Of a DNA stretch of 64,000 bases, positions 5,224 to 25,745 are shown piece by piece. Numbering within the stretch: position 1 is the stretch's first letter; every line of letters starts with the position of its first letter. Origin of the DNA: Clostridia bacterium. GTDB lineage: Bacteria; Bacillota; Clostridia; Christensenellales; CAG-1252. The notes under the pieces were generated by a model that saw only the letters and a program-made list of their open reading frames with translations, did not search any database and was not told where the DNA came from. The DNA lies in the NCBI GenBank assembly GCA_024685775.1, contig JAIKVL010000007.1:15627-79626 (forward strand), in the 5' to 3' direction. The translations under genes and the position numbers were made by a program.

Positions 5224-5334
5224 TTACAGCGAAGCAATGACTTGAACGGGCGGCGAAAACTCCGTCTTTTCGCCCGTCTTCCTTAATATACGCGCGCGCG
5301 TTCGAGCGCATAAAACAAAATTTTGAAAAATCGT

Positions 5335-5363
5335 TTGACAGTTCGTGGGAATCGTGGTACGAT
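5335..5363 (+). promoter_or_regulatory. sigma-A promoter of T-box leader
   Basis: TTGACA-17-TACGAT with extended TG. Confidence 0.85.
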
Positions 5364-5388
5364 ACACTTACAACAGAATAATCATTCA

Positions 5389-5680
5389 AAGGCTGTGACG
5401 AAGTCCGTCTTGATCGAAAACTTCTTTCAGAGATCCGGTGGTTGGTGCGAACCGGTAGAAACGATCGTAGATTATCCCTTCCGAGCCGAAACCCGAAAGC
5501 TTTGTCGTGCTCCACGTCGGCGGCAGTAAAAAGAGCGAGTAGGCGTTTCCGTGACGCTGCGTTAATGCTAAGGGATTGATAGATTCCGAAAAAGAGAGGC
5601 GAATTTCGGTTCGCAATTTGAGTGGTACCGCGGGATAACACCCGTCTCAAAGCAGATGTTTTGAGGCGGGTTTTTGTTTT
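5389..5680 (+). ncRNA. T-box riboswitch, predicted Ile (AUC) specifier
   Basis: GA/K-turn (GGCTGTGACGAAG...CTTCCGAGCC), AGAGA box 5429, apical GGTGCGA loop, specifier loop GATT-ATC-C (ATC 5474-5476), T-box AGTGGTACCGCG 5621-5632, terminator CCCGTCTCAAA...TTTTGAGGCGGG plus T-run 5641-5680. Confidence 0.92.
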
Positions 5681-5775
5681 TCCTCGAAACGGACGCGCTA
5701 TCAGCGGTGCCGCAGCGCATGGATCGCTTAATAAAACGGGAAACCGATGCGCAAAACCAAAAGGAGGAAAAAAGT

Positions 5776-8043
5776 ATGACTACCAACCAAAACCGAAGGC
5801 TTTCGGAGATCGCAGAGCGCATCAAGGAGCTTCGTGAGATTTTCGGTTATTCCGAAGAGGAAATGAGCGAAAAGACCGAAGTCACGATCGCCGAGTACTC
5901 GATGTACGAGCAGGGGCAGCTCGATTTCCCGTTTACCTTTCTTCACAAATGCGCCCTTGCGTTCGGGATCTCGATCACCGATCTTCTCGAAGGTCAAAGC
6001 GCCCACCTTTCGAGCTATACCGTAACGAGAAAAGGAATGGGAATGGAGACCGCGAAAGAGCCCGGCATCGACATCCAAAATCTCGCGCCGCTTTTCCGCA
6101 GCAAGATCGCCGAACCCTATTACGTCCGCTATGAGTACGACCCCTCTCTTCAAGAGCTTCCGATCCACCTGACGAAGCATTCCGGGCAGGAATTCGACTT
6201 CGTTATGAGCGGGAAACTCAAAGTGCAGGTCGGCGAGAACGTCGAGTACCTCGAAGAGGGCGACAGCATTTATTACAACAGTTCCACTCCGCACGGAATG
6301 ATCGCCGTCGGCGGAAAGGATTGCGTCTTCCTCGCGGTCGTTCTCCCCGGCAAGGATCAGGAAGAGACCGTGATCCGCGACACGCTGAACCCGAATAAGA
6401 CGGTGTCCGAGCCGGGCGTCGCTGCCGATTTCATCACCGTAAAAGAAGATGATCGCGGCTATCCGCTGTCGATCGATTTCCATAACGACGACGCGTTCAA
6501 TTTCGCGTTCGACGTCGTGGATAAGATCGCGGATAAGGATCCGAATAAACTCGCGATGCTTCACGTCAGCCGCGATAAAGTCGAGCGCCGCCTGACCTTC
6601 CGCGATATGAAGAGGGCGTCCAACCGTTGCGTGAATTACTTCAAATCGCTCGGGATCAAGAGGGGTGATCGCGTCCTTCTCGTCCTGAAACGCCACTATC
6701 AATTCTGGTTTGCGATCCTCGCGCTTCATAAGCTCGGCGCGATCGCGATCCCCGCGACCTGCCAGCTTTTGTCTCACGATTTCGAGTATCGCTTCCAGGC
6801 GGCGGGCGTTTCCGCGATCGTCTGCACGGCGGACGGAGCCGTCGCGGAGCAAGTCGAGATCGCCGAAAAGACTTCGCCGACCTTGAAGATCAAAATGCTC
6901 GTCGGCGGCAGCCGCCCCGGTTGGCATGATTTCGACGAAGAATATCCGCTGTTCAGCACGCATTACGCGAGACCCAAGGACGCGCCCTGCGGCAACGATC
7001 CGATGCTGATGTTCTTCACTTCGGGGACGACCGGATATCCGAAGATCGCGGAGCATTCCTATAAGTACCCGCTCGGTCACTATATGACGGCGAAGTATTG
7101 GCACGGCGTCAGCGAAGGGGGATTGCATTTTACGATCTCCGACACCGGCTGGGGGAAGGCTCTTTGGGGCAAACTGTACGGGCAATGGCTTGCGGAAAGC
7201 GCGGTCTTTACTTACGATTTCGACCGCTTCGACGCGAGCGACATCCTGCCGATGTTCGCGAAGTATCATATCACGACGTTCTGCGCGCCGCCGACGATGC
7301 TCCGCATGATGATCAAACAAGACCTCTCGAAGTACGATTTTTCCTCGCTCCGTCATATGACGACGGCGGGCGAAGCTTTGAACCCCGAGGTCTACTATCA
7401 ATTCGAAAAAGCGACGGGATTGCAGACGCACGAGGGCTTCGGTCAAACCGAGCTGACATTGATGATCGCGAACCTGATCGGCGCGCCGCATAAAGTCGGT
7501 TCGATGGGTCGCCCCGTCCCCGGTTACGACGTTACGATCCTTTCTCCCGACGGGACTCCCGTTCCGGACGGCGAGACGGGCGAGATCTGCGTAAAAGTTT
7601 CGGAAAAAGTGCCGCGCGGCTTGTTCCTCGGCTACTATCTGAACGAGGAAAAGACCAAAGAAGTCTTGCACGACGGCTACTATCACACGGGCGACACCGC
7701 TTGGCGCGACGAGGACGGTTTCTACTGGTACGTCGGCAGGGTGGACGACGTCATCAAATCGTCGGGCTACCGTATCGGGCCGTTTGAGATCGAGAGCGTC
7801 ATCATGGAGCTTCCCTACGTCGTCGAATGCGGCGTTTCCGCCGCGCCGGACGAGGTCAGAGGGCAGGTCGTCAAAGCGAGCATCGTCCTGACGAAAGGCA
7901 CCGAGCCGACCGATGAACTCAAAAAGGAAATTCAGGATTACGTTAAGAAGCACACCGCTCCTTATAAGTATCCGAGGATCGTCGTCTTCCGCGACGAACT
8001 TCCCAAAACGATCAGCGGGAAAATACAAAGAAATAAACTATAA
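5776..8043 (+). CDS. XRE-HTH + cupin + acyl-CoA synthetase (AMP-binding) fusion, copy 1
   Basis: SD AAGGAGG 5761, ATG 5776 (ORF-track start 5674 lies in the terminator). N-terminal HTH and cupin (HSGQEF, YYNSSTPHGM); ANL motifs FTSGTTGYPK, YHTGD, SSGYRIGPFEIE, PKTISGK. Confidence 0.9.
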   Translation: MTTNQNRRLSEIAERIKELREIFGYSEEEMSEKTEVTIAEYSMYEQGQLDFPFTFLHKCALAFGISITDLLEGQSAHLSSYTVTRKGMGMETAKEPGIDIQNLAPLFRSKIAEPYYVRYEYDPSLQELPIHLTKHSGQEFDFVMSGKLKVQVGENVEYLEEGDSIYYNSSTPHGMIAVGGKDCVFLAVVLPGKDQEETVIRDTLNPNKTVSEPGVAADFITVKEDDRGYPLSIDFHNDDAFNFAFDVVDKIADKDPNKLAMLHVSRDKVERRLTFRDMKRASNRCVNYFKSLGIKRGDRVLLVLKRHYQFWFAILALHKLGAIAIPATCQLLSHDFEYRFQAAGVSAIVCTADGAVAEQVEIAEKTSPTLKIKMLVGGSRPGWHDFDEEYPLFSTHYARPKDAPCGNDPMLMFFTSGTTGYPKIAEHSYKYPLGHYMTAKYWHGVSEGGLHFTISDTGWGKALWGKLYGQWLAESAVFTYDFDRFDASDILPMFAKYHITTFCAPPTMLRMMIKQDLSKYDFSSLRHMTTAGEALNPEVYYQFEKATGLQTHEGFGQTELTLMIANLIGAPHKVGSMGRPVPGYDVTILSPDGTPVPDGETGEICVKVSEKVPRGLFLGYYLNEEKTKEVLHDGYYHTGDTAWRDEDGFYWYVGRVDDVIKSSGYRIGPFEIESVIMELPYVVECGVSAAPDEVRGQVVKASIVLTKGTEPTDELKKEIQDYVKKHTAPYKYPRIVVFRDELPKTISGKIQRNKL

Positions 8044-8060
8044 TTTTCCGGAGAGGTAAA

Positions 8061-10349
8061 ATGGAAAAAACAGATTTGGACGGAAAGATCAAGGAGATGG
8101 CGGAAAGGATCCGCGAGCTGAGAGAGATCGAAGGGCTTTCGGTCTCCGATATGGCGGAGAAGACCGGCGTTTCCGAAGAAGAGTACGCGAAGTGCGAAAG
8201 AGGGGAAAGCGATTTGAACTTTACCTTCATCTATCGTTGCGCGAAAGCGTTCGGCGTCAACGTTACGGATATCATCGAGGGCTATTCTCCGATGCTGAAT
8301 TCCTACACCGTAACGCGCGTCGGATCGGGGCAAAAGATCGCTCAGGCGCACGGGATGACCTACTATAACCTTGCGTATGCTTTCCAAAACAGGATCGCCG
8401 AGCCGCTTTTCGTAAAAAGCGTTTACGATGCGGATAAAGCCGCGAAGGGAGAGATCGAGCTCACTTCTCACGCCGGGCAGGAATGCGACGTCGTGATCGA
8501 CGGCGCCCTGATGGTCCAAGTCGGCAGCCATACCGAGGTCCTCTACCCCGGCGACAGCATTTATTACGACAGCGGCACGCCGCACGGCATGATCGCGGTC
8601 GGCGGCAAGGACTGCACGTTTTACGCGATCGTCCTGAATCCGAGCGGTGAGCCCATTCCCGAGCTTACGCCCGTCAAAGCGATCGTGGACGAGAACGTCC
8701 AAAAGGGCGACGATAAGGATCGCGCCTATAAAAAGTTCATCGACGTCGTCGAGAACGAGCACGGAACGCCTACTTTCATTAAGTTTAAGAACACCGAAAA
8801 CTTCAATTTCGCGTTCGATATCGTGGACGAGGTCGCGAAGCGCGAACCCAACAAGATGTGTATGCTCCACGTCTCGAAGGATATGACCGAAAGGCGCTTC
8901 ACCTTCCTCGATATGAAAAAGGCGTCCAACCGTTGCGCGAACTATTTTAAGTCGCTCGGGATCAAGAAGGGAGATCGCGTCCTTCTCGTTATGAAGCGCC
9001 ACTATCAATTCTGGTTCGCGATGCTCGGACTCAATAAGCTCGGCGCGATCGCGATCCCGGGAACCAACCAGCTTTTGGAACACGATTTCGAGTATCGCTT
9101 CAATTCGGCGGAGATCGAAACCGTGATCTGCACCGCGGACGGTGATACCGCGCACCAAGTCGATCTCGCCGCGCCCCGTTGCCCCTCTCTCAAAAACAAA
9201 CTCATCGTAAACGGGACGAGGGAAGGTTGGCGCAATTTCGACGAGGAATATCCTCTGTACAGCACCCACTTCGAGCGCACGGAGTCTTCGCCGGGCGGCG
9301 ACGACACGATGCTGATGTTCTTTACGTCGGGAACGTCGGGATATCCGAAGATCGCGAGACATAACTACAAATATGCGCTCGGTCATTTCCATACCGCGAA
9401 ATATTGGCATAACGTCGATCCGGACGGCTTGCATTTTACGATCTCCGACACCGGTTGGGCAAAGGCGATGTGGGGCAAACTGTACGGGCAATGGCTTTGC
9501 GAAGCGGCGACCTTCGTTTACGACTTCGATCGCTTCGACGCGGCGACCATTCTTCCGATGTTCGCGAAGTATCATATCACGACGTTCTGCGCGCCGCCGA
9601 CGATGCTTCGCATGATGATCAAGCAGGATATTTCGAAATACGATTTTTCTTCCGTCCGTCATATGACGACGGCGGGCGAAGCGCTGAACCCCGAGGTCTA
9701 TCGCCAATTCGAGAAAGCGACGGGGCTTCAAATCCTCGAAGGTTTCGGCCAGTCCGAAAGCACGATGATCATCGGCAACCTCGTCGGCGCGCCGCATAAG
9801 ATCGGATCGATGGGTAAGCCCGCTCCGATCTACGACGTCGCTTTGATGGATTCCGAAGGAAAGATCGTCGGCGACGGCGAGACGGGCGAGATCGTCATCA
9901 GCCTGAAAAACGGTTCGCCGATCGGTCTCTTTACCGAGTACTACCGCGATCCCGAAAAGACCAAGGAAGCGCGCCACGACGGTTATTACCACACGGGCGA
10001 TCTCGCTTGGCGCGACGAAGACGGCTTCTACTGGTACGTCGGCAGAGCGGACGACGTCATCAAGTCGTCGGGTTACCGCATCGGACCGTTCGAGATCGAA
10101 AGCGTCATTATGGAGCTTCCCTACGTCTTGGAATGCGGCGTTTCCGCCGTTCCGGACGAGGTCAGAGGGCAGATCGTCAAAGCGAGCATCGTCCTGACGA
10201 AAGGGACCGAGCCGTCCGACGAACTCGTCAAGGAGATCCAAAATTACGTCAAGCAACATACCGCGCCGTATAAATATCCGAGGGTCGTCGTCTTCCGCGA
10301 CGAACTCCCGAAGACGACGAGCGGAAAGATCCAAAGAAACAAACTTTGA
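8061..10349 (+). CDS. XRE-HTH + cupin + acyl-CoA synthetase fusion, copy 2
   Basis: Same architecture and motifs as copy 1 (HAGQEC, FTSGTSGYPK, YHTGD, PKTTSGK); tandem paralog. Confidence 0.9.
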   Translation: MEKTDLDGKIKEMAERIRELREIEGLSVSDMAEKTGVSEEEYAKCERGESDLNFTFIYRCAKAFGVNVTDIIEGYSPMLNSYTVTRVGSGQKIAQAHGMTYYNLAYAFQNRIAEPLFVKSVYDADKAAKGEIELTSHAGQECDVVIDGALMVQVGSHTEVLYPGDSIYYDSGTPHGMIAVGGKDCTFYAIVLNPSGEPIPELTPVKAIVDENVQKGDDKDRAYKKFIDVVENEHGTPTFIKFKNTENFNFAFDIVDEVAKREPNKMCMLHVSKDMTERRFTFLDMKKASNRCANYFKSLGIKKGDRVLLVMKRHYQFWFAMLGLNKLGAIAIPGTNQLLEHDFEYRFNSAEIETVICTADGDTAHQVDLAAPRCPSLKNKLIVNGTREGWRNFDEEYPLYSTHFERTESSPGGDDTMLMFFTSGTSGYPKIARHNYKYALGHFHTAKYWHNVDPDGLHFTISDTGWAKAMWGKLYGQWLCEAATFVYDFDRFDAATILPMFAKYHITTFCAPPTMLRMMIKQDISKYDFSSVRHMTTAGEALNPEVYRQFEKATGLQILEGFGQSESTMIIGNLVGAPHKIGSMGKPAPIYDVALMDSEGKIVGDGETGEIVISLKNGSPIGLFTEYYRDPEKTKEARHDGYYHTGDLAWRDEDGFYWYVGRADDVIKSSGYRIGPFEIESVIMELPYVLECGVSAVPDEVRGQIVKASIVLTKGTEPSDELVKEIQNYVKQHTAPYKYPRVVVFRDELPKTTSGKIQRNKL

Positions 10350-10369
10350 TCTCTTCGTGCGCGCGTCGG

Positions 10370-10399
10370 TTGACAAGAAAACGTAATAAGTTTTATAAT
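10370..10399 (+). promoter_or_regulatory. internal sigma-A promoter upstream of P-loop/vor/ilvE genes
   Basis: TTGACA-18-TATAAT. Confidence 0.75.
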
Positions 10400-10440
10400 A
10401 ACAAAATACGCCGAAGGCGGTGAAAAAAAAGGGGAAAACA

Positions 10441-11115
10441 ATGGTCGAAAAGCGAATCACGATGATCTTGGGGCATTACGGAAGCGGAAAAACGAATATC
10501 GCCGTAAACCTCGCGCTCGCGCTGAAAAAGGCGGGGAAAAACGTCGCGATCGCCGACCTTGATATCGTCAACCCGTACTTCCGGACGAAGGACAGCCTTT
10601 CCGTCCTCGAAGAGGCGGGCATTCGCCTGATCTCCTCCGAGTACGCGAATACCAACCTCGACATTCCCGCTCTTCCGCAAGATATGTATGCGGTGACGGA
10701 CGATAAGAGTTTGACCTGCGTCCTCGATATCGGCGGCGATGATCGCGGCGCGCTCGTCCTCGGCAGGCTTCGCCCCGGCATCGTGGAAGAGGGAAATTAC
10801 GAGATGCTCCTCGTTATCAATAAATACCGTCCGCTGACCCAAGACGCGCCTTCGACCATCGAAGTCATGGCGGAGATCGAGGCGGCGGCGAATATGCGTT
10901 TTACGGGGATCATCAATAATTCCAACCTCGGCGCGGAGACCACTGCGGAAACCGTTTCGGATTCCCTCGAATATGCGCGCGAGATCTCGAAATTGACTTC
11001 GCTCCCGATCGTTATGACGACGGTGAAAGAAGAATTGATCAAAAAGCTGGAAGGAAAAGCGGAAAACCTCTTTCCGCTGACTTTACAGAAAAACTTTATA
11101 GAGAGTAAAATTTGA
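10441..11115 (+). CDS. P-loop NTPase (MinD/CobQ-like) of unknown function preceding the oxidoreductase genes
   Basis: Walker A GHYGSGKT, then DLDIVNPYFR and LDIGGDD; ATG 10441 preferred over GTG 10420. Confidence 0.8.
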   Translation: MVEKRITMILGHYGSGKTNIAVNLALALKKAGKNVAIADLDIVNPYFRTKDSLSVLEEAGIRLISSEYANTNLDIPALPQDMYAVTDDKSLTCVLDIGGDDRGALVLGRLRPGIVEEGNYEMLLVINKYRPLTQDAPSTIEVMAEIEAAANMRFTGIINNSNLGAETTAETVSDSLEYAREISKLTSLPIVMTTVKEELIKKLEGKAENLFPLTLQKNFIESKI

Positions 11116-11130
11116 AAAAGGAGATGGCTT

Positions 11131-11337
11131 ATGGCAAAACTGACTTTCAAAACCGACTACTGTAAGGGCTGCGGACTATGCGTGGACGTTTGCCCGAAAG
11201 ACGTTCTGCGTCTTGCTCCCGACAAGATTAACAAAAAAGGGCATCATCCCGTTGAAGCCGCGAAACCCGATCAATGCGTCGGATGCGGTTCCTGCGCGAT
11301 CATGTGCCCCGATTCTATTATAAAGGTGGAAAGGTGA
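11131..11337 (+). CDS. 2x[4Fe-4S] ferredoxin-like (delta) subunit of 2-oxoacid:ferredoxin oxidoreductase
   Basis: CKGCGLCVDVCP and CVGCGSCAIMCP. Confidence 0.92.
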   Translation: MAKLTFKTDYCKGCGLCVDVCPKDVLRLAPDKINKKGHHPVEAAKPDQCVGCGSCAIMCPDSIIKVER

Positions 11338-11341
11338 TAGT

Positions 11342-12409
11342 ATGGCAGATAAAGTTTTGATGAAAGGTAACGAAGCGATCGCCGAAGCGGCGATCAAAGC
11401 AGGTTGCAGACACTATTTCGGCTATCCCATCACGCCGCAGACCGAAGTCGCGGCTTATATGGCGAAGAGAATGCCGAAGATCGGCGGGACCTTCCTCCAA
11501 GCGGAGAGCGAGATCGCCGCGATCAATATGGTGTACGGCGTGGCGAGCGCGGGATTTCGCGCGATGACCTCTTCTTCCAGCCCGGGTATCTCCCTGAAAG
11601 GCGAGGGCATCAGTTACCTCGCGGGCGCGGATCTTCCGGCTCTCGTCGTTAACGTTCAGCGCGGCGGTCCGGGGCTCGGCGGTATCCAGCCCAGCCAATC
11701 CGATTATTTCCAAGCGACGCGCGGCGGCGGCCACGGCGACTATCATATGATCGTCCTCGCGCCTTCGTCCGTTCAGGAAATGGCGGAGCTTACCGTCAAA
11801 GGGTTCGAACTCGCGGATAAGTACAGAATGACCTCGATGATCCTTGCGGACGGAACGATGGGGCAGATGATGGAGCCCGTTGATCTGAATTTCACCGTCG
11901 CTCCCGCTCCCGAAAAACCGTGGGCGACGACGGGAACCAAGATGCAGCGCAAACACAATATCGTGAACTCCCTGTCCCTCGTCCCCGAAGAGCTTGAAAA
12001 GCTCAATATCGCGCGTTTCGAGCGTTACGACCTCGTCAAGAAGAACGAGACGATGTACGAAGAGTATATGATGGACGACGCGGATATCGCGATCGCCGCG
12101 TTCGGTATCGCCGCGAGAGTCTCGAAGAACGCCGTCAAAGAGGCGAGAAAGAGAGGGATCAAGGCGGGTCTTATTCGCCCGATCACTTTGTGGCCGTTCC
12201 CCGACGCACCTTTCAAGAAGGCGGCGGAGCACGTCAAAGAGATCATCTCGGTGGAACTTTCGATGGGACAAATGATCGAGGACGTTCGCCTCGCTTCGGA
12301 ATGCAAAGTCAAAGTTTCGCTGTGTAACCGCGTCGGAGGTATGATTCCTTCGCCCGAGCAGGTTTTGGACGCGATCGTTAAAGCAAGTAAGAACGGAGGT
12401 AAGGAATAA
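11342..12409 (+). CDS. vorB: 2-oxoacid:ferredoxin oxidoreductase alpha subunit (VorB-like, 3-methyl-2-oxobutanoate dehydrogenase)
   Basis: KGNEAIAEAAI, YFGYPITPQ, QAESE, TSSSSPG, QRGGPGLG motifs. Confidence 0.88.
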   Translation: MADKVLMKGNEAIAEAAIKAGCRHYFGYPITPQTEVAAYMAKRMPKIGGTFLQAESEIAAINMVYGVASAGFRAMTSSSSPGISLKGEGISYLAGADLPALVVNVQRGGPGLGGIQPSQSDYFQATRGGGHGDYHMIVLAPSSVQEMAELTVKGFELADKYRMTSMILADGTMGQMMEPVDLNFTVAPAPEKPWATTGTKMQRKHNIVNSLSLVPEELEKLNIARFERYDLVKKNETMYEEYMMDDADIAIAAFGIAARVSKNAVKEARKRGIKAGLIRPITLWPFPDAPFKKAAEHVKEIISVELSMGQMIEDVRLASECKVKVSLCNRVGGMIPSPEQVLDAIVKASKNGGKE

Positions 12410-13164
12410 TGATAGTTTACGATAAACCGCACGCGCTTTTGGACGTGCCTCTCCATTATTGCCCCGGCTGCACGCACGGTATTGTGCATAAACTGGTGGC
12501 GGAAGTTATAGACGAACTCGGCATCGAAGGCGAAACGATCGGTATCGCTCCCGTCGGTTGCTCGGTTATGGCGTACGATTATTTCGCCTGCGATATGATC
12601 GAAGCGGCGCACGGAAGAGCGCCCGCGGTCGCGACGGGCGTCAAGAGGGCGGATCCCTCCAAAGTCGTCTTTACCTACCAAGGCGACGGTGACCTCGCTT
12701 CCATCGGTATGGCGGAAACCGTGCACGCCGCGGCGAGAAACGAGAACATCACCGTTATCTTTATCAATAACGCGATCTACGGAATGACCGGTGGTCAAAT
12801 GGCGCCGACCTCCCTCGTCGGGCAGGTCACGCAGACATCTCCTTACGGCAGAGATCCCAAACTTTGCGGTTACCCGATCAAGGTTTGCGAGCTTCTTTCC
12901 GAGCTCGAAGGTCCGGAATATTTGGAGCGCGTCACCGTAAACAGCATTCCCCATATCCGCGCCGCGAAGAAGGCGATCAAGAAAGCTTTCCAAAACCAGA
13001 TCGAAGGGAAGGGCTTCTCTTTGATCGAAGTCGTCTCTTCCTGCCCGACGAACTGGGGTATGACGCCGCAAAACGCGTTGAAGTGGATCGAAGAAAAAAT
13101 GCTTCCGTACTATCCGCTCGGCGTGTATAAAGACAGAAGCGCAAGCGAGGAGGACAAGAAATAA
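12409..13164 (+). CDS. 2-oxoacid:ferredoxin oxidoreductase beta (TPP-binding) subunit
   Basis: YCPGCTHG, GCS, TPP motif GDGD...INN, GMTGGQMAPT, CP. Confidence 0.92.
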   Translation: MIVYDKPHALLDVPLHYCPGCTHGIVHKLVAEVIDELGIEGETIGIAPVGCSVMAYDYFACDMIEAAHGRAPAVATGVKRADPSKVVFTYQGDGDLASIGMAETVHAAARNENITVIFINNAIYGMTGGQMAPTSLVGQVTQTSPYGRDPKLCGYPIKVCELLSELEGPEYLERVTVNSIPHIRAAKKAIKKAFQNQIEGKGFSLIEVVSSCPTNWGMTPQNALKWIEEKMLPYYPLGVYKDRSASEEDKK

Positions 13165-13697
13165 TGAGCACGAGACAATTTCTTTTTTCCGGTTTCGGCG
13201 GACAAGGTATCCTTTTTGCGGGAAAATTCATCGCGTATAAAGGCTTGATCGAAGATAAAGAAGTCAGCTGGCTCCCGTCCTACGGCCCCGAAATGCGCGG
13301 CGGCACGGCGAGTTGCAGCGTCATCGTTTCGGATGAACCCGTCGGTTCCCCGATCGTCAACACGCCCGACGTCCTCGTCGCGATGAACCTTCCTTCTCTC
13401 GACCGTTTCGAGAGCAAGGTCGCGCCCGGCGGCATCATCTTTTTGGATTCGTCCCTGATCGAGCGCAAAGTCGAAAGGACGGACGTTACCGTCTTCGCTC
13501 TTCCCGCCACGCAAATGGCGTCCGATAACGGATTCCCGACTTTGGCGAATATGATCATCGTCGGCAAGATCCTCAAAGAGCTCGGGGAGTACAGCGACGA
13601 AAGTTTGAAAGCCGCGCTTGCGAAAGTCATCAGCGCGAAGCACGCCGATATGATGGAAGTGAACCGTAAGGCGATCGACCTCGGCGCGAACTATTAA
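13164..13697 (+). CDS. 2-oxoacid:ferredoxin oxidoreductase gamma subunit
   Basis: SGFGGQG, PSYGPEMRGG, NMIIVG. Confidence 0.92.
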   Translation: MSTRQFLFSGFGGQGILFAGKFIAYKGLIEDKEVSWLPSYGPEMRGGTASCSVIVSDEPVGSPIVNTPDVLVAMNLPSLDRFESKVAPGGIIFLDSSLIERKVERTDVTVFALPATQMASDNGFPTLANMIIVGKILKELGEYSDESLKAALAKVISAKHADMMEVNRKAIDLGANY

Positions 13698-13707
13698 GGA
13701 GAGAATT

Positions 13708-14772
13708 ATGGAAATCAAATACGTTAAAACGCAAAATCCCAAGGCGATGCCCCCGGAGGACACGCTCGGGTTCGGGAAATATTTTACCGATCATATGCTT
13801 ATGATGGATTGGTCTTCGGATCAAGGATGGCACGATCTCCGCATCGTCCCGTTCGCGAATCTTTCGATCCATCCCGCCTGCACCGCGCTTCATTACGGCT
13901 CGGAGATCTTCGAGGGCTTGAAGGCGTACAGGAGAGCGGACGGCGAAGTCCAACTCTTCCGTCCGATGGAGAATATCCGCAGAATGAATAACTCCGCCGA
14001 AAGGCTTTGCCTCCCCGAGATCCCCGAAGATCTCGCGCTCAAAGCGCTTCTCGCGTTCGTTTCTTCCGAAAAGGCTTGGACGCCGCATAAGAAGGGAACT
14101 TCTTTGTACCTCCGCCCCTTTATGTTCGGAAACGACGAGACCCTCGGCGTGCACGCCGTCCATCACGCGACCTTCGTGATCATCGCGTCTCCGGTCGGCA
14201 GCTACTACAAAGAGGGCATCAACCCCGTCAAGATCATGATCGAATCCGAAGACGTTCGCGCGGTGCGCGGCGGCACGGGCTACGCGAAGTGCGGCGGTAA
14301 CTACGCGGCTTCCAACCGCGCCGGAAAGAAAGCCGAAGATAAGGGCTATTCGCAGGTCCTTTGGCTGGACGGCGTCGAAAGGAAGTACATCGAGGAAGTC
14401 GGCGCGATGAACGTTATGTTCAAGATTGCGGGTAAGATCGTTACCCCGAAACTCACCGGCTCGATCCTTCCGGGTATCACGAGGAAGAGCTGTATCGAAG
14501 TCTTGAAGAAGGCGGGCTATACCGTCGAGGAAAGGCTTCTCTCCGTCGAAGAGCTCGGCAACGCGCTTAAAAACGGGACGCTCGAAGAGGCGTGGGGTTG
14601 CGGAACGGCAGCCGTCGTCTCCCCGATCGGCGAACTCTGCTATAAGGACGTGAAGTACACGATCAACGGCGGAAAGATCGGCGAAGTAACGCAGAAATTA
14701 TACGACACGTTGACCGGCATCCAATGGGGTGAGATCGAAGACACCTTCGGCTGGACGACCGTCGTAAAATAA
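13708..14772 (+). CDS. ilvE: branched-chain amino acid aminotransferase
   Basis: LHYGSEIFEGLKAY, LYLRP, PLP lysine in AKCGGNY, EEVGAMN, ILPGITR. Confidence 0.95.
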   Translation: MEIKYVKTQNPKAMPPEDTLGFGKYFTDHMLMMDWSSDQGWHDLRIVPFANLSIHPACTALHYGSEIFEGLKAYRRADGEVQLFRPMENIRRMNNSAERLCLPEIPEDLALKALLAFVSSEKAWTPHKKGTSLYLRPFMFGNDETLGVHAVHHATFVIIASPVGSYYKEGINPVKIMIESEDVRAVRGGTGYAKCGGNYAASNRAGKKAEDKGYSQVLWLDGVERKYIEEVGAMNVMFKIAGKIVTPKLTGSILPGITRKSCIEVLKKAGYTVEERLLSVEELGNALKNGTLEEAWGCGTAAVVSPIGELCYKDVKYTINGGKIGEVTQKLYDTLTGIQWGEIEDTFGWTTVVK

Positions 14773-14800
14773 GGAATAATCAAAAAAAAGGAGCAAAAGT

Positions 14801-16174
14801 ATGAATCAAGTGAAAATAACGGCAAGGCTTTGCGGAAATGAGAACGAACTGACGTTCAAAGAGAAATTCGAGATCGCGCGCTTGCTGGAAAAGCTATGCG
14901 TGGACGTTATCGAATTCCCCGCTCTATCGGGAAATAAAGAAGACGCCTTGCTAATTCGTACTTGCGCGTCCTTTATCAAAAACAGCGTTCTTTCCGTCCC
15001 CGTGCTCTCCGCGGCGCAGGCGGACGAAGCGGCTGCGTGCCTTTCGGGCGCGAATAACGCCGCATTGCGCGTCGAGCTCAGCGTCTCTCCCGTCGGGATG
15101 GAATATTTCCACCACAGAAAGGCGCCGAAGATGCTCGAACTCATCAAAGAACTCGTTTCTTACGCCGCGTCCAAGGCGAAGAAAGTGTATTTCTGCGCGC
15201 TCGACGCGACGCGCGCCGAAGAAGAATTCTTGAAGAGCGCGCTTCTCGCGGCGGAAGAAGCCGGCGCGAAAGCCGTCTATCTTTCGGACGACGCGGGCGA
15301 AATGCTCCCGGACGAGTTCGCGCTTTTTGCGGAAAAATTCGGAAAGGTCGTCGGCGTTCCGATCGGCGTCGCCGTCTCGAATAAGAGCGGATTTGCGCTT
15401 TCTTCCGCGGTGCTTGCGGTCAGAAAAGGCGTTAAAGCCGTCAAAACCGTGCTTTCGGGCGACGGGATCTCTCTTCAAGCGTTCGCGAACTGCATCAAAA
15501 ACAGCGGCGCGAGAAACGGGATCGCGCTCGGCGTTACCTATACCGAACTCAATCGTATTATCGCGCGCGTAAACGGCATTTCGGACGGCGGCGAGGGCTC
15601 GGCTCCCTCCAAAGCCGAACTCGGCGACGCGCCTTTCGTCAATTTGGACGAAAACGATAATAAGGAAGCCGTCACGGAAGCGGCGGCGAAACTCGGCTAC
15701 GATCTTTCAAACGAAGATCAGACGAAAGTGTACGAGGAATTCCTGCGCGTCGCGAATAAGAAAAAGAGAGTCGGCGCGAAAGAACTCGACGCGATCATCG
15801 CTTCGGCGGCGCTTCAAGTCCCCGCGACGTACAAGCTCGTCAGCTATGTGATCAATAACGGCAACATCATTCATTCTTCCGCGCAGATCGCCTTGCAAAA
15901 GGGCAATGAGACGCTCGCGGGCATCTCGATGGGTAACGGACCGATCGACGCGGCGTTCCTTTGCTTGGAAAGCATTTTGGGGACGCATTACGAGCTCGAC
16001 GATTTCGAGATCCAGTCGGTGACCGAAGGAAAAGAGGCGATGGGCTCCGCGCTCGTCAAACTCCGCAAAGACGGGAAACTCTATTCCGGCAAGGGTATTT
16101 CGACCGATATCATCGGGGCTTCGATTCGCGCCTATCTCAGCGCGGCGAATAAGATCGCATACGAGGAGGAATAA
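14801..16174 (+). CDS. LeuA (2-isopropylmalate synthase)-like protein with degenerate catalytic domain and intact C-terminal allosteric domain
   Basis: EKFEIARLLEKLCVDVIE matches the LeuA N-terminus but DTTLRDGxQ is absent; HxHND reads AVSNK; C-terminal GNGPIDAAF...GKGISTDIIGASIRAYLSA. Confidence 0.85.
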   Translation: MNQVKITARLCGNENELTFKEKFEIARLLEKLCVDVIEFPALSGNKEDALLIRTCASFIKNSVLSVPVLSAAQADEAAACLSGANNAALRVELSVSPVGMEYFHHRKAPKMLELIKELVSYAASKAKKVYFCALDATRAEEEFLKSALLAAEEAGAKAVYLSDDAGEMLPDEFALFAEKFGKVVGVPIGVAVSNKSGFALSSAVLAVRKGVKAVKTVLSGDGISLQAFANCIKNSGARNGIALGVTYTELNRIIARVNGISDGGEGSAPSKAELGDAPFVNLDENDNKEAVTEAAAKLGYDLSNEDQTKVYEEFLRVANKKKRVGAKELDAIIASAALQVPATYKLVSYVINNGNIIHSSAQIALQKGNETLAGISMGNGPIDAAFLCLESILGTHYELDDFEIQSVTEGKEAMGSALVKLRKDGKLYSGKGISTDIIGASIRAYLSAANKIAYEEE

Positions 16175-16176
16175 CG

Positions 16177-18705
16177 ATGAAACTTTCATTTTCCACGAAG
16201 GGTTGGCATCACTCCTCCTTCGATGATTTTTGCGACTACGCCTGCGATCTCGGATTCGACGGCGTGGAACTTCATAACATCCATAATAAACTTTTTACCG
16301 ATAAAGACGGCGCGTTTCACGATTACGCCGCGGCGGCGACGCTTCGCAAACTGTACGAGAAGAAATTGTCGCTTCCCTGCATCGACGCGATCTGTGACGT
16401 TGCGACGGTAAACGGAAGGGAAGAAGCGATCGAAGAGATCGGGAAATGCGCGGAGATCGCGCAGAATCTTCATATCCCCTACGTCCGCGTTCGCGCCGAA
16501 GCGCACGAGGATGAGGCGCAAGCGGACGAGCGCGTTCGCTCGTTGATCGCGGAAGTCCTTCCGATCGCCGAAAAAGCGGGCGTGACCATCGTTATGGAAA
16601 CCGCGGGATTGTACGTCAGCAGCGCGCGTCTTCGCGATCTTTTGCAAAGCTTTGCCTGTGATTCTTTCGCCGCGCTTTGGAATTTCTCCGCCGCTTACTT
16701 CGGTTCGGGCGAGGCTCCCGAAAAAGTCATCGAGAACCTCGGCGCCTACGTTAAGCACGTTCACTTGAACGACGCGAAAAAGACCCGAGACGGCGCGATC
16801 GAGTACTCTCTCCTCGGAGAGGGCGATCTCCCCGTCAAGGATATGATGGCGGCGCTTTCTTCCGTCAATTACGACGGATTTATTTCCCTCGTCTGGCATC
16901 CGGATTGGTGCGGCGAACTCAAAGACATCGAGATCATTTTCGCGCAATTCGTCGGCTTTATGAAGCAATTCGGCGACACGGCGAAAGGAGAGAAGTCTTT
17001 ATACTGGAATCGCAGACATACCGGTAAATTCGTCTGGAAGAAGGAAATCTTGATCGACGAGACTTTCCCCGCCGTCCTCGACAGAATGTGCGAAGAGTTC
17101 CCCGATCAGTACGCATTTAAGTACACGACCCTCGATTACACGAGGACCTACGTCGAGTTCCGCAGAGACGTGGACGAATTCGCCCGCACCTTGATCGCGC
17201 TCGGCGTCAAAGCCGGATCGCACGTCGCCGTTTGGGCGTCCAACGTCCCACAATGGTATATCGCGTTTTGGGCGACCGTTAAAATCGGCGCCGTCCTCGT
17301 GACGGTCAACACGGCGTACAAGATCGCCGAGGTCGAATACCTTTTGAAGCAGTCCGACACGCACACGTTGATCATGACCGAAGGTTCGAAAGATTGTCAT
17401 TACGGCAAGATCATCGCGCAGCTTTGCCCCGAGCTTTCGGAAAAGAAACCTTCCGATCCGTTGCACGCAAAGCGTCTTCCTTTCCTCAGAAACGTCATTA
17501 CCGTCGGCTATCGTCAGCCCGGTTGCTTAACTTGGAGTCAAGCGATCAAACTCTCCGAAAAGGTCAAGCAGGAAGAGGTCTTGCGTATGGCGGCGGCGGT
17601 CAATAAACACGACGTCTGCAATATGCAGTACACGTCCGGAACGACGGGCTTCCCGAAGGGCGTCATGCTGACGCACTACAATATCGTAAATAACGGCAAG
17701 TCGATCGGCGACCGTATGGATCTTTCGACGGCGGACAGAATGATGATCCAAGTCCCGATGTTCCATTGCTTCGGAATGGTCCTCGCGATGACCGCGACGA
17801 TGACGCACGGCGGCACGCTTTTGCCCCTGCCGTACTTCTCGCCGAAACCCGCGCTCGCTTGCATCAATAACGAGCATATCACTGCGTTCCACGGCGTCCC
17901 GACGATGTTTATCGCGCTTCTCGAACACCCCGATTTCCCGAAGACGGACTTCTCGTATATGAGGACGGGCATTATGGCGGGTTCGCCTTGCCCGATTTCC
18001 GCGATGCAACAGGTCGTCGAGAAAATGAATATGAAAGAGATCACGATCGTCTACGGGCAGACCGAGGCTTCCCCGGGTTGCACGATGAGTTCGACGGACG
18101 ATCCGATCGAGATCCGCGTCGGGACGGTCGGCAGACCGCTTCCCGAAATCGAGTGCCGCATCGTAAATCCCGAGACGGGCGAAGATTGCCCCGACGAAGT
18201 TACGGGCGAATTCTTGGCGCGCGGCTATAACATTATGAAGGGATACTATAAGATGCCGAAAGCGACCGCGCAGGCGATCGATAAGGACGGCTGGCTCCAC
18301 ACGGGCGACCTCGCTTGCAGGACGAAAGAAGGGAACTTCCGCATTACGGGCAGGCTCAAAGATATGATCATTCGCGGCGGCGAAAACATCTATCCGAAAG
18401 AGATCGAGGAATTCATTTACACCCATCCGAAGGTCTCGGACGTTCAAGTCATCGGCGTCCCGGACGAGTCCTACGGCGAAGAGATCATGGCGTGTATCAT
18501 CCTGAAAGAGGGTGAGACGATGACCGCGGACGAGATGAAAGCCTATATCGGCGCGAATATGGCGCGCCATAAGGTCCCGAAGTACGTCGATTTCGTTACG
18601 TCCTTCCCGATGAACGCCGCGGGCAAGATCTTGAAGTATAAAATGCGCGAGGACGCGATCGCGAAACTCGGGCTTCAAAAAGCGAACAGCATCGAAACGG
18701 CTTGA
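16177..18705 (+). CDS. xylose isomerase-like (AP_endonuc_2) TIM barrel fused to acyl-CoA synthetase
   Basis: N-terminal GFDGVEL...VMET...HVHLND...GEG; C-terminal YTSGTTGFPKG, HTGDL, GRLKDMIIRGGENIYP, AGKILK. Confidence 0.88.
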   Translation: MKLSFSTKGWHHSSFDDFCDYACDLGFDGVELHNIHNKLFTDKDGAFHDYAAAATLRKLYEKKLSLPCIDAICDVATVNGREEAIEEIGKCAEIAQNLHIPYVRVRAEAHEDEAQADERVRSLIAEVLPIAEKAGVTIVMETAGLYVSSARLRDLLQSFACDSFAALWNFSAAYFGSGEAPEKVIENLGAYVKHVHLNDAKKTRDGAIEYSLLGEGDLPVKDMMAALSSVNYDGFISLVWHPDWCGELKDIEIIFAQFVGFMKQFGDTAKGEKSLYWNRRHTGKFVWKKEILIDETFPAVLDRMCEEFPDQYAFKYTTLDYTRTYVEFRRDVDEFARTLIALGVKAGSHVAVWASNVPQWYIAFWATVKIGAVLVTVNTAYKIAEVEYLLKQSDTHTLIMTEGSKDCHYGKIIAQLCPELSEKKPSDPLHAKRLPFLRNVITVGYRQPGCLTWSQAIKLSEKVKQEEVLRMAAAVNKHDVCNMQYTSGTTGFPKGVMLTHYNIVNNGKSIGDRMDLSTADRMMIQVPMFHCFGMVLAMTATMTHGGTLLPLPYFSPKPALACINNEHITAFHGVPTMFIALLEHPDFPKTDFSYMRTGIMAGSPCPISAMQQVVEKMNMKEITIVYGQTEASPGCTMSSTDDPIEIRVGTVGRPLPEIECRIVNPETGEDCPDEVTGEFLARGYNIMKGYYKMPKATAQAIDKDGWLHTGDLACRTKEGNFRITGRLKDMIIRGGENIYPKEIEEFIYTHPKVSDVQVIGVPDESYGEEIMACIILKEGETMTADEMKAYIGANMARHKVPKYVDFVTSFPMNAAGKILKYKMREDAIAKLGLQKANSIETA

Positions 18706-18724
18706 TCGTTTAAAGGAAAATGCT

Positions 18725-18758
18725 TTGCCGCTCTCTTTTCGGAGTGCGGCAACTTTTT
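18725..18758 (+). terminator. probable terminator after the TIM-ACS gene
   Basis: TTGCCGC...GCGGCAA stem then CTTTTT. Confidence 0.6.
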
Positions 18759-18778: not shown

Positions 18779-20059
18779 ATGGGGATCATCATCCTTTCCG
18801 TTTGCACGGTCGCGCTGTTTATTCTCTCGGTGCTTTTGAAGCCCGAGATCAAAATCGGAAAAATCAAGTTCGATAGCTTTTTTCTGTTCCCGCTCGTCGG
18901 CGCGATTCTTTGTCTGTCGCTCGGATATCTCCCGCTTTCCGATCTTATGTCCGCGCTGTTTTCGAAAGGGGAGATGAACCCTTTGAAGATCCTCGTTTTG
19001 TTCTTCTCGATGACCGTTATGAGCCTGTATTTGGACGAAGCGGGGTTTTTCCGTTACCTCGCGGCGAAGAGCGCGGGGTCGTCCGGGAAGCTCGGGTTTT
19101 TCATCCGAATCTACGCGCTCGTCTCCATTCTGACGATCTTTACTTCGAACGACGTCGTGATCTTGACCTTTACTCCGTTTATTTGCGCCTACGCGAAACG
19201 GCTTCGAATTTCGCCGTTCCCGTATCTTATGATGGAATTCGTCGCGGCGAACACTTGGAGTATGCTTTTCATCGTCGGCAATCCGACGAATATTTATATC
19301 GCCGCCTCGCTCGGCACGGATTTTTTCCATTACTTGAAGATTATGTTTCTCCCCGCGATCGCCGCGGGCGGCGTTTCTTTTCTCGCGCTGTTGCTTTTGT
19401 TCAAAAACGAATTGAAGGAGCGCGCCGAACTCGCGCCGATCGAAGAGAAGATCGAACTCGATAAACCCCTCGTCGCGCTCTCTTTGTCCGCTCTCGGGTT
19501 ATGCGTTCTCGCGCTCGTCGTCAGCTCCTTCCTGCCAAACGTTCAAATGTGGTATATTTCGCTCGGATTCGCGCTGCTCTTGACGGTGGTCGTCGCCGTC
19601 GTCCGCCTCGCAAGAAAGGAAAAAGCGAAGTATTTGTTCGCCGCGTATAAAAGGCTTCCGTATGCGATCGCGCCTTTTCTCGTGTCGATGTTTATCCTCG
19701 TCCTTGCGCTGAAAGAGCAAGGAGTAACGGCTAGAATCGCTTCTTTGATCCCGAATGAAGGGGAGATCTTTTCCTACGGCGGCATCTCCTATCTCGCCGC
19801 GAACCTTTTGAATAACATCCCGATGAGCGTCCTTTTCGCGGAGATCTGCCCGACTGCGGGCGCGAAGTTCGCCGCGATCGTTTCTTCGAATCTCGGCGCG
19901 CTCCTAACCCCCGTCGGCGCGCTCGCCGGCATTATGTTTACCAAGATCACCGCGACATACGGCGAAGAGATCAAGGTTTATAAATTCGTCCTTTGCGGCG
20001 CGGCGGTCTCCGTTCCCGCGCTTGCGGCGTCGCTCGGCGCGCTTCTCGTGACGCTGTAA
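18779..20059 (+). CDS. ArsB/NhaD (ion transporter superfamily) anion permease
   Basis: About 11-12 hydrophobic segments; SNDVVIL, VGNPTNI, NNIP, NLGALLTPVGALAGI. Confidence 0.85.
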   Translation: MGIIILSVCTVALFILSVLLKPEIKIGKIKFDSFFLFPLVGAILCLSLGYLPLSDLMSALFSKGEMNPLKILVLFFSMTVMSLYLDEAGFFRYLAAKSAGSSGKLGFFIRIYALVSILTIFTSNDVVILTFTPFICAYAKRLRISPFPYLMMEFVAANTWSMLFIVGNPTNIYIAASLGTDFFHYLKIMFLPAIAAGGVSFLALLLLFKNELKERAELAPIEEKIELDKPLVALSLSALGLCVLALVVSSFLPNVQMWYISLGFALLLTVVVAVVRLARKEKAKYLFAAYKRLPYAIAPFLVSMFILVLALKEQGVTARIASLIPNEGEIFSYGGISYLAANLLNNIPMSVLFAEICPTAGAKFAAIVSSNLGALLTPVGALAGIMFTKITATYGEEIKVYKFVLCGAAVSVPALAASLGALLVTL

Positions 20060-20109
20060 TCGTCGACTATTACCATTATCTCCGACATCTTCCCAAACGA
20101 ACCGCTGTT

Positions 20110-20135
20110 TTTCCGACTTTGTCGGAAATTTTTTT
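20110..20135 (+). terminator. Rho-independent terminator
   Basis: TTTCCGAC-ttt-GTCGGAAA plus T7. Confidence 0.65.
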
Positions 20136-20171
20136 CTGTGAAATTTTTTGAAAAAATATGTAAAAAAAGGA

Positions 20172-20200
20172 TTGACAAGCAATACTATGCATTGTACAAT
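20172..20200 (+). promoter_or_regulatory. sigma-A promoter of ABC exporter
   Basis: TTGACA-17-TACAAT. Confidence 0.8.
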
Positions 20201-20261
20201 ATGACGCATAAGGCAGTATGACGAGGCCGCCGAAGTGCGACCTTGGAAGAAGGAAAGGAAA

Positions 20262-22625: not shown

Positions 22626-22636
22626 GAGAAAAGAAT

Positions 22637-23407
22637 ATGAATACCGTTTTACAATCCAAGGCACTTTGCAAATCTTACGTTTCCGATCATCACGCGCACG
22701 ACGTCCTGAAAAACGTCGACCTGACGATCCGAGAGGGCGAAATGGTCGCGATCATGGGGCCGTCAGGCTCGGGGAAAAGCACCTTGCTTTACTGCGTCTC
22801 GGGAATGGACAGACCTTCGTCGGGTTCGGTCGTCTTCAACGGACGCGAGATCGACAAACTCAAAGATAAGGAACTCGCGGTCGTTCGACTGGACGAAATG
22901 GGCTTTATTTTTCAGCAAATGTATATGATGAAAAATCTGTCCGTTCTCGATAATATCATCCTGCCCGCCGTTAAATCCAAAAAAGGAAAAGAAAGCCGCA
23001 AGGCGATCGAAGCGCGCGGCAAAGAATTGATGAAAAAACTCGGGATCGAGGACGTGTGGGATAAAGACATAAACGAAGTTTCCGGCGGTCAGCTCCAACG
23101 CGCGTGTATTTGTCGCAGTTTGATCAATAACCCGAAACTGATCTTCGCGGACGAACCGACGGGCGCTTTGAATCGCGCGAATTCGGACGAGGTGATGCGC
23201 GAACTGCTCGCGATCAACGCCGGCGGAACGACGATCCTTTTGGTTACGCACGATCCGAAGGTCGCCGCCAAGTGCGGTCGCGTCCTCTATATCGTGGACG
23301 GCGAGATCGTCGGCGAAATAGAGCCGGGTCGTTTCGAAGGGGGAGAGGAAGCGCTCCGCGAGCGCGAAAAATCCTTAAACGATTGGTTGATGGAGCGGGG
23401 CTGGTAA
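22637..23407 (+). CDS. ABC transporter ATP-binding subunit (LolD/MacB-like)
   Basis: GPSGSGKS, VSGGQLQR, IFADEPTG, VTHD; start MNTVLQ after SD AGGAG. Confidence 0.93.
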   Translation: MNTVLQSKALCKSYVSDHHAHDVLKNVDLTIREGEMVAIMGPSGSGKSTLLYCVSGMDRPSSGSVVFNGREIDKLKDKELAVVRLDEMGFIFQQMYMMKNLSVLDNIILPAVKSKKGKESRKAIEARGKELMKKLGIEDVWDKDINEVSGGQLQRACICRSLINNPKLIFADEPTGALNRANSDEVMRELLAINAGGTTILLVTHDPKVAAKCGRVLYIVDGEIVGEIEPGRFEGGEEALREREKSLNDWLMERGW

Positions 23408-23430
23408 AACCCGTTTTCGATAGGCGTTCG

Positions 23431-23473
23431 AAGAGAGGCGAGAGCGGAGTTTTCCCTTTGCGCCTCTCTTTTT
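23431..23473 (+). terminator. probable terminator after ABC ATPase
   Basis: AAGAGAGGCG...CGCCTCTCTT plus TTT. Confidence 0.6.
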
Positions 23474-23511
23474 GATAGACCTTTTTCGGGAAAGCGGTAT
23501 ATAATAAAAAT

Positions 23512-24858: not shown

Positions 24859-24904
24859 TAAAAAGAATCAATAGTTGAAAACAATTAAAGAAATCGAATG
24901 TTTG

Positions 24905-25120: not shown

Positions 25121-25130
25121 ATCGTTATTG

Positions 25131-25182
25131 TATAGAAAAATCTATGGCAATGCTTGACATATAGAATATTCTATACTAATAT
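25131..25182. promoter_or_regulatory. divergent control region with two palindromic operators overlapping a promoter
   Basis: Perfect 16-bp palindrome TATAGAATATTCTATA 25160-25175 inside TTGACA(25154)-17-TAATAT; second copy TATAGAAAAATCTATG 25131-25146 (13/16). Confidence 0.75.
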
Positions 25183-25210
25183 ATAGCGGATCAAACGTGG
25201 AGAGGGCACA

Positions 25211-25708: not shown

Positions 25709-25745
25709 TAAAGGTGTCGAAACAAAAATGTATGATTGACAAAAG

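Follow-up and report, generated by a model that had tools for sequence, protein, structure and literature searches.

A T-box-headed gene cluster in a Clostridia bacterium as a candidate operon for making isoleucine, valine, and leucine from branched-chain fatty acids

INTRODUCTION

A requirement for isobutyrate, 2-methylbutyrate, and isovalerate has been known for about sixty years in cellulolytic and other rumen Clostridia, and the isoacids serve as feed additives. Anabolic use of a 2-oxoisovalerate:ferredoxin oxidoreductase is found in Methanothermobacter, and a T-box with a leucine (Leu) specifier heads the ilv-leu operon of Bacillus subtilis. Labelling work by Allison and co-workers from 1962 to 1971, listed in PMC7356843, described the carboxylation and amination of isovalerate, 2-methylbutyrate, and isobutyrate to Leu, isoleucine (Ile), and valine (Val) in rumen bacteria. 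Methanogens have the same route (PMC2812497, PMC10658910), and Methanobrevibacter ruminantium requires 2-methylbutyrate (PMC2812497). Here, we analyze a ten-gene cluster that follows a T-box leader in a 64,000-nucleotide (nt) stretch of DNA from a Clostridia bacterium (Christensenellales; CAG-1252), referred to below as the window (GenBank assembly GCA_024685775.1, contig JAIKVL010000007.1, positions 15,627 to 79,626; all coordinates given are those of the window unless a contig is named). The cluster would encode such a route, from acid to amino acid. We consider it very probable that it is a starvation-induced salvage operon that makes Ile, Val, and Leu from 2-methylbutyrate, isobutyrate, and isovalerate, respectively. 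In the full-text literature that we searched, we found no description of a bacterial gene cluster for this route, of T-box control of a 2-oxoacid:ferredoxin oxidoreductase (OFOR) or of acyl-coenzyme A (acyl-CoA) ligases, or of a pseudo-LeuA.

RESULTS

The source genome comprises 1.71 Mb in 38 contigs and is rated 97% complete and 0.2% contaminated. From 5335 to 18705, every gene is on the plus strand, with intergenic gaps of 0 to 70 nt, in the order ACS1, ACS2, P-loop NTPase, OFOR delta, alpha, beta, and gamma, IlvE, LeuA-like protein, and TIM-ACS. A first-pass annotation, made from the DNA letters, had described a co-oriented cluster of three acyl-CoA synthetases, a four-subunit Vor-type oxidoreductase, and IlvE, headed by a T-box. 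Our family searches recovered each of these elements, with the synthetases matching both PF00501 and PF13193 and with the OFOR alpha subunit, IlvE, and the leader all scoring above the thresholds of their families. The annotation had not named the NTPase and the LeuA-like protein, and its start coordinate, 5335, corresponds to the −35 box of a promoter. Public records hold all ten proteins with the same starts, labelled generically (for example, "AMP-binding protein" or "2-oxoglutarate oxidoreductase"). The ten reading frames are unbroken, and identity within the genus is 70 to 99%. A TTG at 5674 was rejected as the start of ACS1 in favor of the ATG at 5776.

The promoter (5335-5363, plus strand) is of the sigma-70 type, with the hexamers TTGACA and TACGAT separated by 17 nt and a TG-extended −10 element. 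Both hexamers are conserved across four genomes of the genus; together with the beginning of the leader, they are all that is conserved upstream. The T-box leader (5386-5652, plus strand) matched Rfam RF00230 over model positions 1 to 219 of 219 and, at 97.2 bits, exceeded the gathering score of 93. Infernal alignments combined with a Stem I covariance model placed the specifier, AUC (Ile), at 5474-5476. This codon ends one base ahead of the Stem I closing stem, the last four bases before which align as AUC-C (5474-5477). The overlapping Tyr codon UAU was rejected as the specifier, as relatives keep AUC while the preceding base varies (G, C, or U). A UGGU bulge at 5623-5626 suits a tRNA with A73, and tRNA-Ile(GAU) is encoded in the genome according to aragorn. 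The intrinsic terminator (5640-5681, plus strand) consists of a hairpin with a 14-bp stem (5640-5671) and a T run behind it. Terminator and antiterminator overlap in the 3′ half of the latter and share the 5′ arm of the terminator, which makes the two structures mutually exclusive. As judged from this leader, the operon would be switched on by uncharged tRNA-Ile. The genome contains only two other T-boxes, located upstream of thrS and of a trpB-like gene. The latter T-box (C6:5092-5340, minus strand) carries a UGG specifier and lies ahead of a gene for a 480-amino-acid (aa) TrpB-like protein (type 2).

The first-pass annotation had found no ilvB, ilvC, ilvD, or functional leuA in the window. 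Extending the search for ilvBNCD and leuABCD to the whole genome gave the same picture: none of these genes was found in functional form, the LeuA-like protein being degenerate. Specifically, tblastn with Escherichia coli IlvI, IlvH, IlvC, IlvD, IlvM, LeuC, and LeuD yielded no match in the genome, and TIGR00110 (IlvD) likewise had no match there, whereas it matched in 14 of 14 control genomes. A weak LeuB-like match (C20) was rejected as a leucine gene because it is an NADP isocitrate dehydrogenase; a second LeuA-like match (C17) is citrate/homocitrate synthase-like, lacks the LeuA regulatory domain, and was also rejected. On the evidence of the assembly, the usual Ile/Val/Leu pathway is absent from this genome.

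The cluster and the standard pathway also largely exclude each other more widely. In an evenly drawn sample of 201 genomes of the order, we counted as carriers those with a LeuA-like orthologue of at least 420 bits. There were 23, from 10 families. A true IlvD, scoring over the family cut-off, was present in 1 of the 23 carriers versus 82 of the 178 other genomes (Fisher p = 6e-5), and a canonical LeuA (~510 aa) was present in 1 of 23 versus 56 of 178 (Fisher p = 0.006), both values being uncorrected for phylogeny. The lone sampled genome with the cluster plus a true IlvD and LeuA (G116, contigs C5 and C6) has two NTPase-Vor modules, and its ACS1-like gene lies behind a CUC (Leu) T-box rather than an AUC one.

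The first-pass annotation had also proposed a survey of the cluster in gut and rumen metagenome-assembled genomes. We found that the gene set persists in different genera and families of the order and is complete in three of the genomes inspected (G008, G016, and G006). In a further genome, G045, the order is shuffled, and the genes are split into three T-box units: LeuA-like-TIM-ACS, ACS1, and ACS2-IlvE-NTPase-Vor. Scanning species-representative genomes with an alignment of the LeuA-like protein returned at least 572 loci. The best 80, which we examined, are without exception from uncultured Clostridia of the rumen or hindgut, with goat, buffalo, deer, yak, sheep, and cattle as hosts and with NCBI titles that include Acutalibacteraceae, Ruminococcus sp., Oscillospiraceae, and "Christensenella sp. 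UBA1252." Most commonly, the genes of these 80 loci are arranged as [T-box] ACS1 [T-box] ACS2-NTPase-delta-alpha-beta-gamma-IlvE [T-box] LeuA-like-TIM-ACS.

The three leaders of this layout carry different specifiers. Rfam alignments for G045 and G030 showed AUC ahead of ACS1, GUA (Val) ahead of ACS2, and CUC (Leu) ahead of the LeuA-like gene. With a Stem I covariance model derived from ten leaders, we obtained 104 matches over 87 sources and sorted them by the downstream gene. Upstream of ACS1, the specifier was AUC in 14 of 14 cases. Upstream of ACS2, it was GUA in 17, GUC in 1, and AUC in 3, the last of these belonging to distant single-copy genes for synthetases with helix-turn-helix (HTH) and cupin domains. 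All 65 leaders of LeuA-like-TIM-ACS units specify Leu (64 CUC and 1 CUG), and two NTPase-first operons carry CUC. Nine more leaders, from more distant genomes, follow the same specifier rule. A maximum-likelihood tree of the catalytic domains was consistent with this division: 15 of the 17 GUA-labelled sequences fall into one clade (support 100/99) that includes ACS2 of the window, while the other two lie on separate branches outside this Val clade and inside the wider ACS1/ACS2 group. The AUC-labelled sequences form a paraphyletic remainder that includes ACS1 of the window; none is in the Val clade, and no GUA-labelled synthetase occurs among the Ile-type rows. In the relatives, starvation for Ile, Val, and Leu would thus each induce one ligase. 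The Val and Leu assignments carry over to the present genome by orthology, since Val T-boxes control the orthologues of ACS2 and Leu T-boxes those of TIM-ACS.

Several relatives depart from the common arrangement. G016, from another genus of the same family, has all ten genes of the cluster in unchanged order (C10:68500-88400), and no T-box was detected there by Rfam (E ≤ 0.001) or by the Stem I model; control in that genome must therefore differ. In the more distant genomes G032 and G198, the fusions are split or recombined, with the HTH-cupin module and the ligase encoded by separate adjacent genes. G032 (C1:296000-315900) has the TIM barrel as its own gene after a Leu-gated ligase, and G198 (C11:311000-327000) has TIM-ACS, NTPase, Vor, and HTH-cupin/ACS genes in one string that lacks the LeuA-like gene and ilvE. 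In G045, the interval separating TIM-ACS from the Ile T-box contains a weak match to the Rfam Gut-1 small RNA (L026:9636-9707, minus strand), whose 41.4 bits fall below the gathering score of 50.

The three synthetases are the candidate entry points of the pathway. ACS1 (5776-8043, 755 aa) and ACS2 (8061-10349, 762 aa) each join an XRE-type HTH domain and a cupin domain to an AMP-forming acyl-CoA synthetase, as assigned by Pfam and NCBIfam. TIM-ACS (16177-18705, 842 aa) joins a xylose isomerase-like TIM barrel to such an enzyme. The ANL-superfamily catalytic core (AMP-binding plus AMP-binding_C) of MbcS/MacsMa-type synthetases is present (PF00501, E = 1e-59 to 1e-61, plus PF13193). MbcS is the top NCBIfam family for both ACS1 and ACS2, and the closest solved structure to ACS2 is 3ETC, that of MacsMa from Methanosarcina acetivorans (624 bits). 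The preferred substrate of MacsMa is 2-methylbutyrate (PMC10455477), and MbcS has a KM below 10 µM for 2-methylbutyrate and isobutyrate and above 500 µM for isovalerate (PMC10026030). The ligase domain of TIM-ACS belongs to a separate, PRK12583/FadD-like clade; the poor use of isovalerate by MbcS would explain why the Leu arm employs a different ligase clade. From the T-box specifiers of the orthologues and the tree, we propose ACS1 as a putative 2-methylbutyrate-CoA ligase for the Ile arm, ACS2 as a putative isobutyrate-CoA ligase for the Val arm, and TIM-ACS as a putative isovalerate-CoA ligase for the Leu arm. Since all three are AMP-forming, they appear suited to the activation of acids and not to an ATP-yielding breakdown.

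Branched acids also enter rumen bacterial lipids, which raises the alternative that the ligases chiefly supply branched acyl-CoA primers for membrane lipids, with the link to amino acids being secondary. MbcS, the best family match of ACS1 and ACS2, does this in Staphylococcus aureus, where it feeds FabH (PMC10026030). Control by the charging of tRNA-Ile, -Val, and -Leu, with one specifier per ligase, suits protein synthesis rather than lipid supply. The ligases are moreover cotranscribed with an OFOR and the only branched-chain aminotransferase (BCAT) of the genome, and the cluster is anticorrelated with ilvD. We regard lipid supply as a very unlikely main function, and the priming of lipids could still be a side benefit of amino acid salvage.

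The enzymes for the next two steps lie in the middle of the operon. OFOR delta (11131-11337) is a 68-aa ferredoxin with two [4Fe-4S] motifs (CxxCxxCxxxCP, twice) and matches the NCBIfam families OGOR_delta and PorD_KorD. OFOR alpha (11342-12409) is of the VorB type (NF005507, 539 bits against a cut-off of 399), with 1YD7, 8YS5, and 6N2N as solved relatives. OFOR beta (12409-13164) is the thiamine pyrophosphate-binding subunit (PF02775, E = 3e-23, with matches to NCBIfam beta-subunit families as well), and gamma (13164-13697) matches PF01558 (E = 2e-37). IlvE (13708-14772), a branched-chain amino acid aminotransferase, scored 482 bits against a cut-off of 307 for PRK13357 and 396 against 250 for TIGR01123; it is the only one in the genome, giving a single tblastn match. 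The context of the OFOR (a T-box, accompanying ligases and IlvE, and no ilvD) suggests that it is specific for branched-chain 2-oxoacids and runs in the carboxylating direction. The genome also encodes a pyruvate:ferredoxin oxidoreductase (PFOR) 47% identical to E. coli YdbK.

The NTPase (10441-11115, 224 aa) is of the SIMIBI class, with the Walker A motif GHYGSGKT and no conserved Cys. Its gene always adjoins that of the delta subunit. Its sequence matches are limited to the P-loop, and no close structure was found: with an AF2 model of pLDDT 86, the top folds were SRP/FtsY and ATPase-type HypB, at a TM-score of just ~0.55. The NTPase accompanies delta-alpha-beta-gamma in 84 of the 201 sampled genomes, some of which are ilvD positive and have no T-box on the module. 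Its presence with Vor in ilvD-positive genomes indicates that it goes with the oxidoreductase rather than with the salvage logic, and we propose that it may be a maturation or assembly factor of the OFOR.

The same enzymes could in principle serve a catabolic operon, in which IlvE and the OFOR would oxidize branched-chain amino acids to acyl-CoAs, as in Stickland-type metabolism, and the ligases would operate in the reverse direction or scavenge CoA esters. VorB-type OFORs can work in both directions and take their name from the oxidative reaction, and the P-loop-Vor module stands alone in genomes with a normal biosynthetic pathway; none of five such stand-alone modules in ilvD-positive genomes has a T-box. 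Induction by uncharged tRNA, however, reports amino acid scarcity, which is the wrong signal for degradation. AMP-forming ligases conserve no ATP, and a single Pta-AckA pair was the only phosphotransacylase/kinase pair seen in the genome. Carriers without ilvD and leuA would, in addition, degrade amino acids that they cannot make. A catabolic role is, in our judgment, highly improbable. The biosynthetic direction favored by the first-pass annotation is instead supported, on genomic grounds, by the specifiers, the exclusion of ilvD and leuA, the sole BCAT, the AMP-forming ligases, and a search for BrnQ- or LivHM-type importers that found none. Likewise, its proposed route from acid to acyl-CoA to 2-oxoacid to amino acid has a fitting candidate gene for every step.

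Transcription of the cluster could be followed in Logan contigs from a sheep gut metatranscriptome that are 98 to 99% identical to the window. These contigs cover most 517-nt bins between 5517 and 18958, and the flanks are nearly empty, with a single contig in 1-5600 and hardly any in 18959-26000. A contig at 5612-5836 spans the antiterminator/terminator region into ACS1, and another (14498-14998) bridges IlvE and the LeuA-like gene with zero mismatches. The contigs indicate the presence of RNA, not regulation. In metatranscriptome X13, a contig of depth 42 joins 5634, at the 3′ end of the T-box, to 8253, inside ACS2, with a shorter side of 23 nt; the probable origin of this join is a relative with a separate leader for ACS2, rather than a deletion in the present genome.

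Some observations weigh against a three-armed salvage operon. In this genus, one Ile T-box governs all three arms, so that the control of the Val and Leu arms is unexplained. tRNA-Leu(GAG), the partner of the CUC specifier used by the Leu arm of relatives, was not found by aragorn in any contig; the same search returned 44 tRNA genes, including tRNA-Leu with the anticodons CAA, CAG, UAA, and UAG. Its absence may be linked to the loss of the Leu T-box in the genus, or the gene may lie within the 3% of the genome that is absent. The importer search, in which no homologue of BrnQ, LivH, LivM, LivJ, or LivK was found, did not extend to other families such as the APC or BcaP type. The scores of ACS1 and ACS2 against MbcS, 420 and 441 bits, are below the equivalog cut-off of 850. 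The oxidoreductase alone is not diagnostic of direction, given the reversibility of OFORs and the occurrence of T-box-free copies of the module in ilvD-positive genomes. Finally, the metatranscriptome consists of assembled contigs from a related strain that differs by 1 to 2%, with possible DNA content.

The first two of these points are also what would be expected if the operon here made isoleucine only, with ACS2, the LeuA-like protein, and TIM-ACS serving other substrates or decaying. Only the Ile specifier is present, and the gaps of 17 nt between ACS1 and ACS2 and of 28 nt between IlvE and the LeuA-like gene are too small for additional leaders. All ten frames are nevertheless intact and well conserved within the genus, ACS2 and TIM-ACS group with orthologues gated by Val and Leu T-boxes, and metatranscriptome contigs cover the distal genes as well. 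The genome is also without other Val and Leu routes, and no BrnQ- or LivHM-type importer was found. We consider an isoleucine-only operon very unlikely, and salvage of all three amino acids is the reading that we retain.

The LeuA-like protein (14801-16174, 457 aa) has kept the regulatory part of LeuA and lost the catalytic part. An alignment of four LeuA-like orthologues to E. coli LeuA showed that DTTLRDGEQ, the HxH metal ligands, ERAGN, and the catalytic-His subdomain are all lost. By contrast, the leucine-binding regulatory domain (LeuA_dimer, PF08502) is kept, scoring 101 bits against a cut-off of 24.9 over profile positions 3 to 130 of 131. The best score to a LeuA family was 224 bits, below the cut-off of 532. 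The protein is predicted to be catalytically dead. TIM-ACS is encoded directly downstream of it in 78 of the 80 loci, and the remaining 2 end at a contig edge. We propose that the LeuA-like protein may be a Leu sensor for the third synthetase. The TIM domain of TIM-ACS has a mean column identity of 70% over 31 sequences, and its model (pLDDT 86) has a generic sugar isomerase/epimerase fold. A fold search for its function returned generic sugar isomerase, epimerase, and dehydratase barrels (TM-score ~0.75) and nothing specific.

The HTH-cupin, LeuA-like, and TIM modules may all be ligand sensors that act as a second brake on the ATP-consuming first steps. A more elaborate scheme, which we put forward tentatively and think somewhat unlikely, is that each arm is gated twice, by a T-box and by ligand sensors on the ligases, that the NTPase is a dedicated and hitherto unrecognized maturation or activation factor of VorB-type OFORs, and that the RNA gates have collapsed to Ile in this genus. 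In this scheme, the HTH-cupin modules may sense for the Ile and Val ligases, and the TIM barrel and the LeuA pseudoenzyme, recycled from the lost pathway, may sense for the Leu ligase. If so, the protein sensors would be the only Val- and Leu-specific control left in this genus. Autoregulation by the HTH domains at the promoter is unsupported, since 5230-5400 holds no inverted repeat or operator-like palindrome.

Downstream of the operon, an ArsB/CitMHS-like permease is encoded at 18779-20059, with no terminator in between and a terminator at 20110-20128 after it. It was rejected as an operon member because it is not conserved beside the cluster in relatives and has no metatranscriptome coverage. 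It is followed by an open reading frame of 796 aa (20235-22625) with no NCBIfam match, whose adjacency to the cluster is not kept in relatives.

DISCUSSION

We propose the following mechanism for the operon. Transcription would begin at the promoter at 5335-5363 and stop at the T-box terminator hairpin (5640-5671), except when the AUC specifier and the UGGU bulge are paired with uncharged tRNA-Ile(GAU). After read-through, the ATP-dependent, AMP-forming ligases would convert the branched acids to acyl-CoAs, with ACS1 acting on 2-methylbutyrate, ACS2 on isobutyrate, and TIM-ACS on isovalerate. The delta-alpha-beta-gamma OFOR would then form the 2-oxoacid from acyl-CoA, CO2, and reduced ferredoxin by reductive carboxylation, with the PFOR of the genome as the likely source of reduced ferredoxin. 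IlvE would complete the route by transamination of the 2-oxoacid to the amino acid.

If this proposal is correct, it supplies candidate genes for a pathway that has been known since the 1960s only from labelling, and the T-box specifiers would provide a built-in substrate assignment for each ligase. The route would fix CO2 into amino acids with a handful of enzymes in place of eight or more. The cluster could also serve as a genomic marker that predicts which uncultured organisms rely on cross-fed branched acids; with at least 572 LeuA-like marker loci in species-representative genomes, it is a concrete, testable gene set. New questions arise at the protein level as well, concerning the pseudo-LeuA, the sensor-enzyme fusions, and the OFOR-linked NTPase.

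Reductive carboxylation in rumen bacteria and methanogens shares with this locus its chemistry, its habitat, and the loss of the normal pathway. That work consists of physiology and enzyme activity and offers no bacterial gene cluster, whereas here one operon combines dedicated ligases, tRNA-sensing leaders, and sensor-like domains. In contrast to archaeal VorA, the OFOR alpha subunit is of the short KorA/VorB type. MacsMa and MbcS are the nearest relatives of the catalytic domains of ACS1 and ACS2, and these reference enzymes prefer 2-methylbutyrate and/or isobutyrate. ACS1 and ACS2 differ from them in bearing an N-terminal XRE-HTH and cupin module of ~240 aa, and where MbcS feeds FabH, they are predicted to feed an OFOR and a BCAT.

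The LeuA-like protein resembles LeuA, or 2-isopropylmalate synthase, in overall length and in its well-conserved C-terminal LeuA_dimer domain. It is unlike LeuA in that its barrel is stripped of metal-binding and catalytic motifs, in that it is found in genomes without leuBCD, and in that it is always directly upstream of TIM-ACS. The leader is predicted to work as in other Firmicutes T-box operons, with transcription attenuation, a specifier codon, a UGGN bulge, and a terminator/antiterminator pair. The controlled genes, however, are not those of the Bacillus subtilis ilv-leu operon but acyl-CoA ligases, an OFOR, and a BCAT. A further difference is that, in the relatives, one pathway is partitioned among three leaders with different specifiers, giving separate Ile, Val, and Leu arms.

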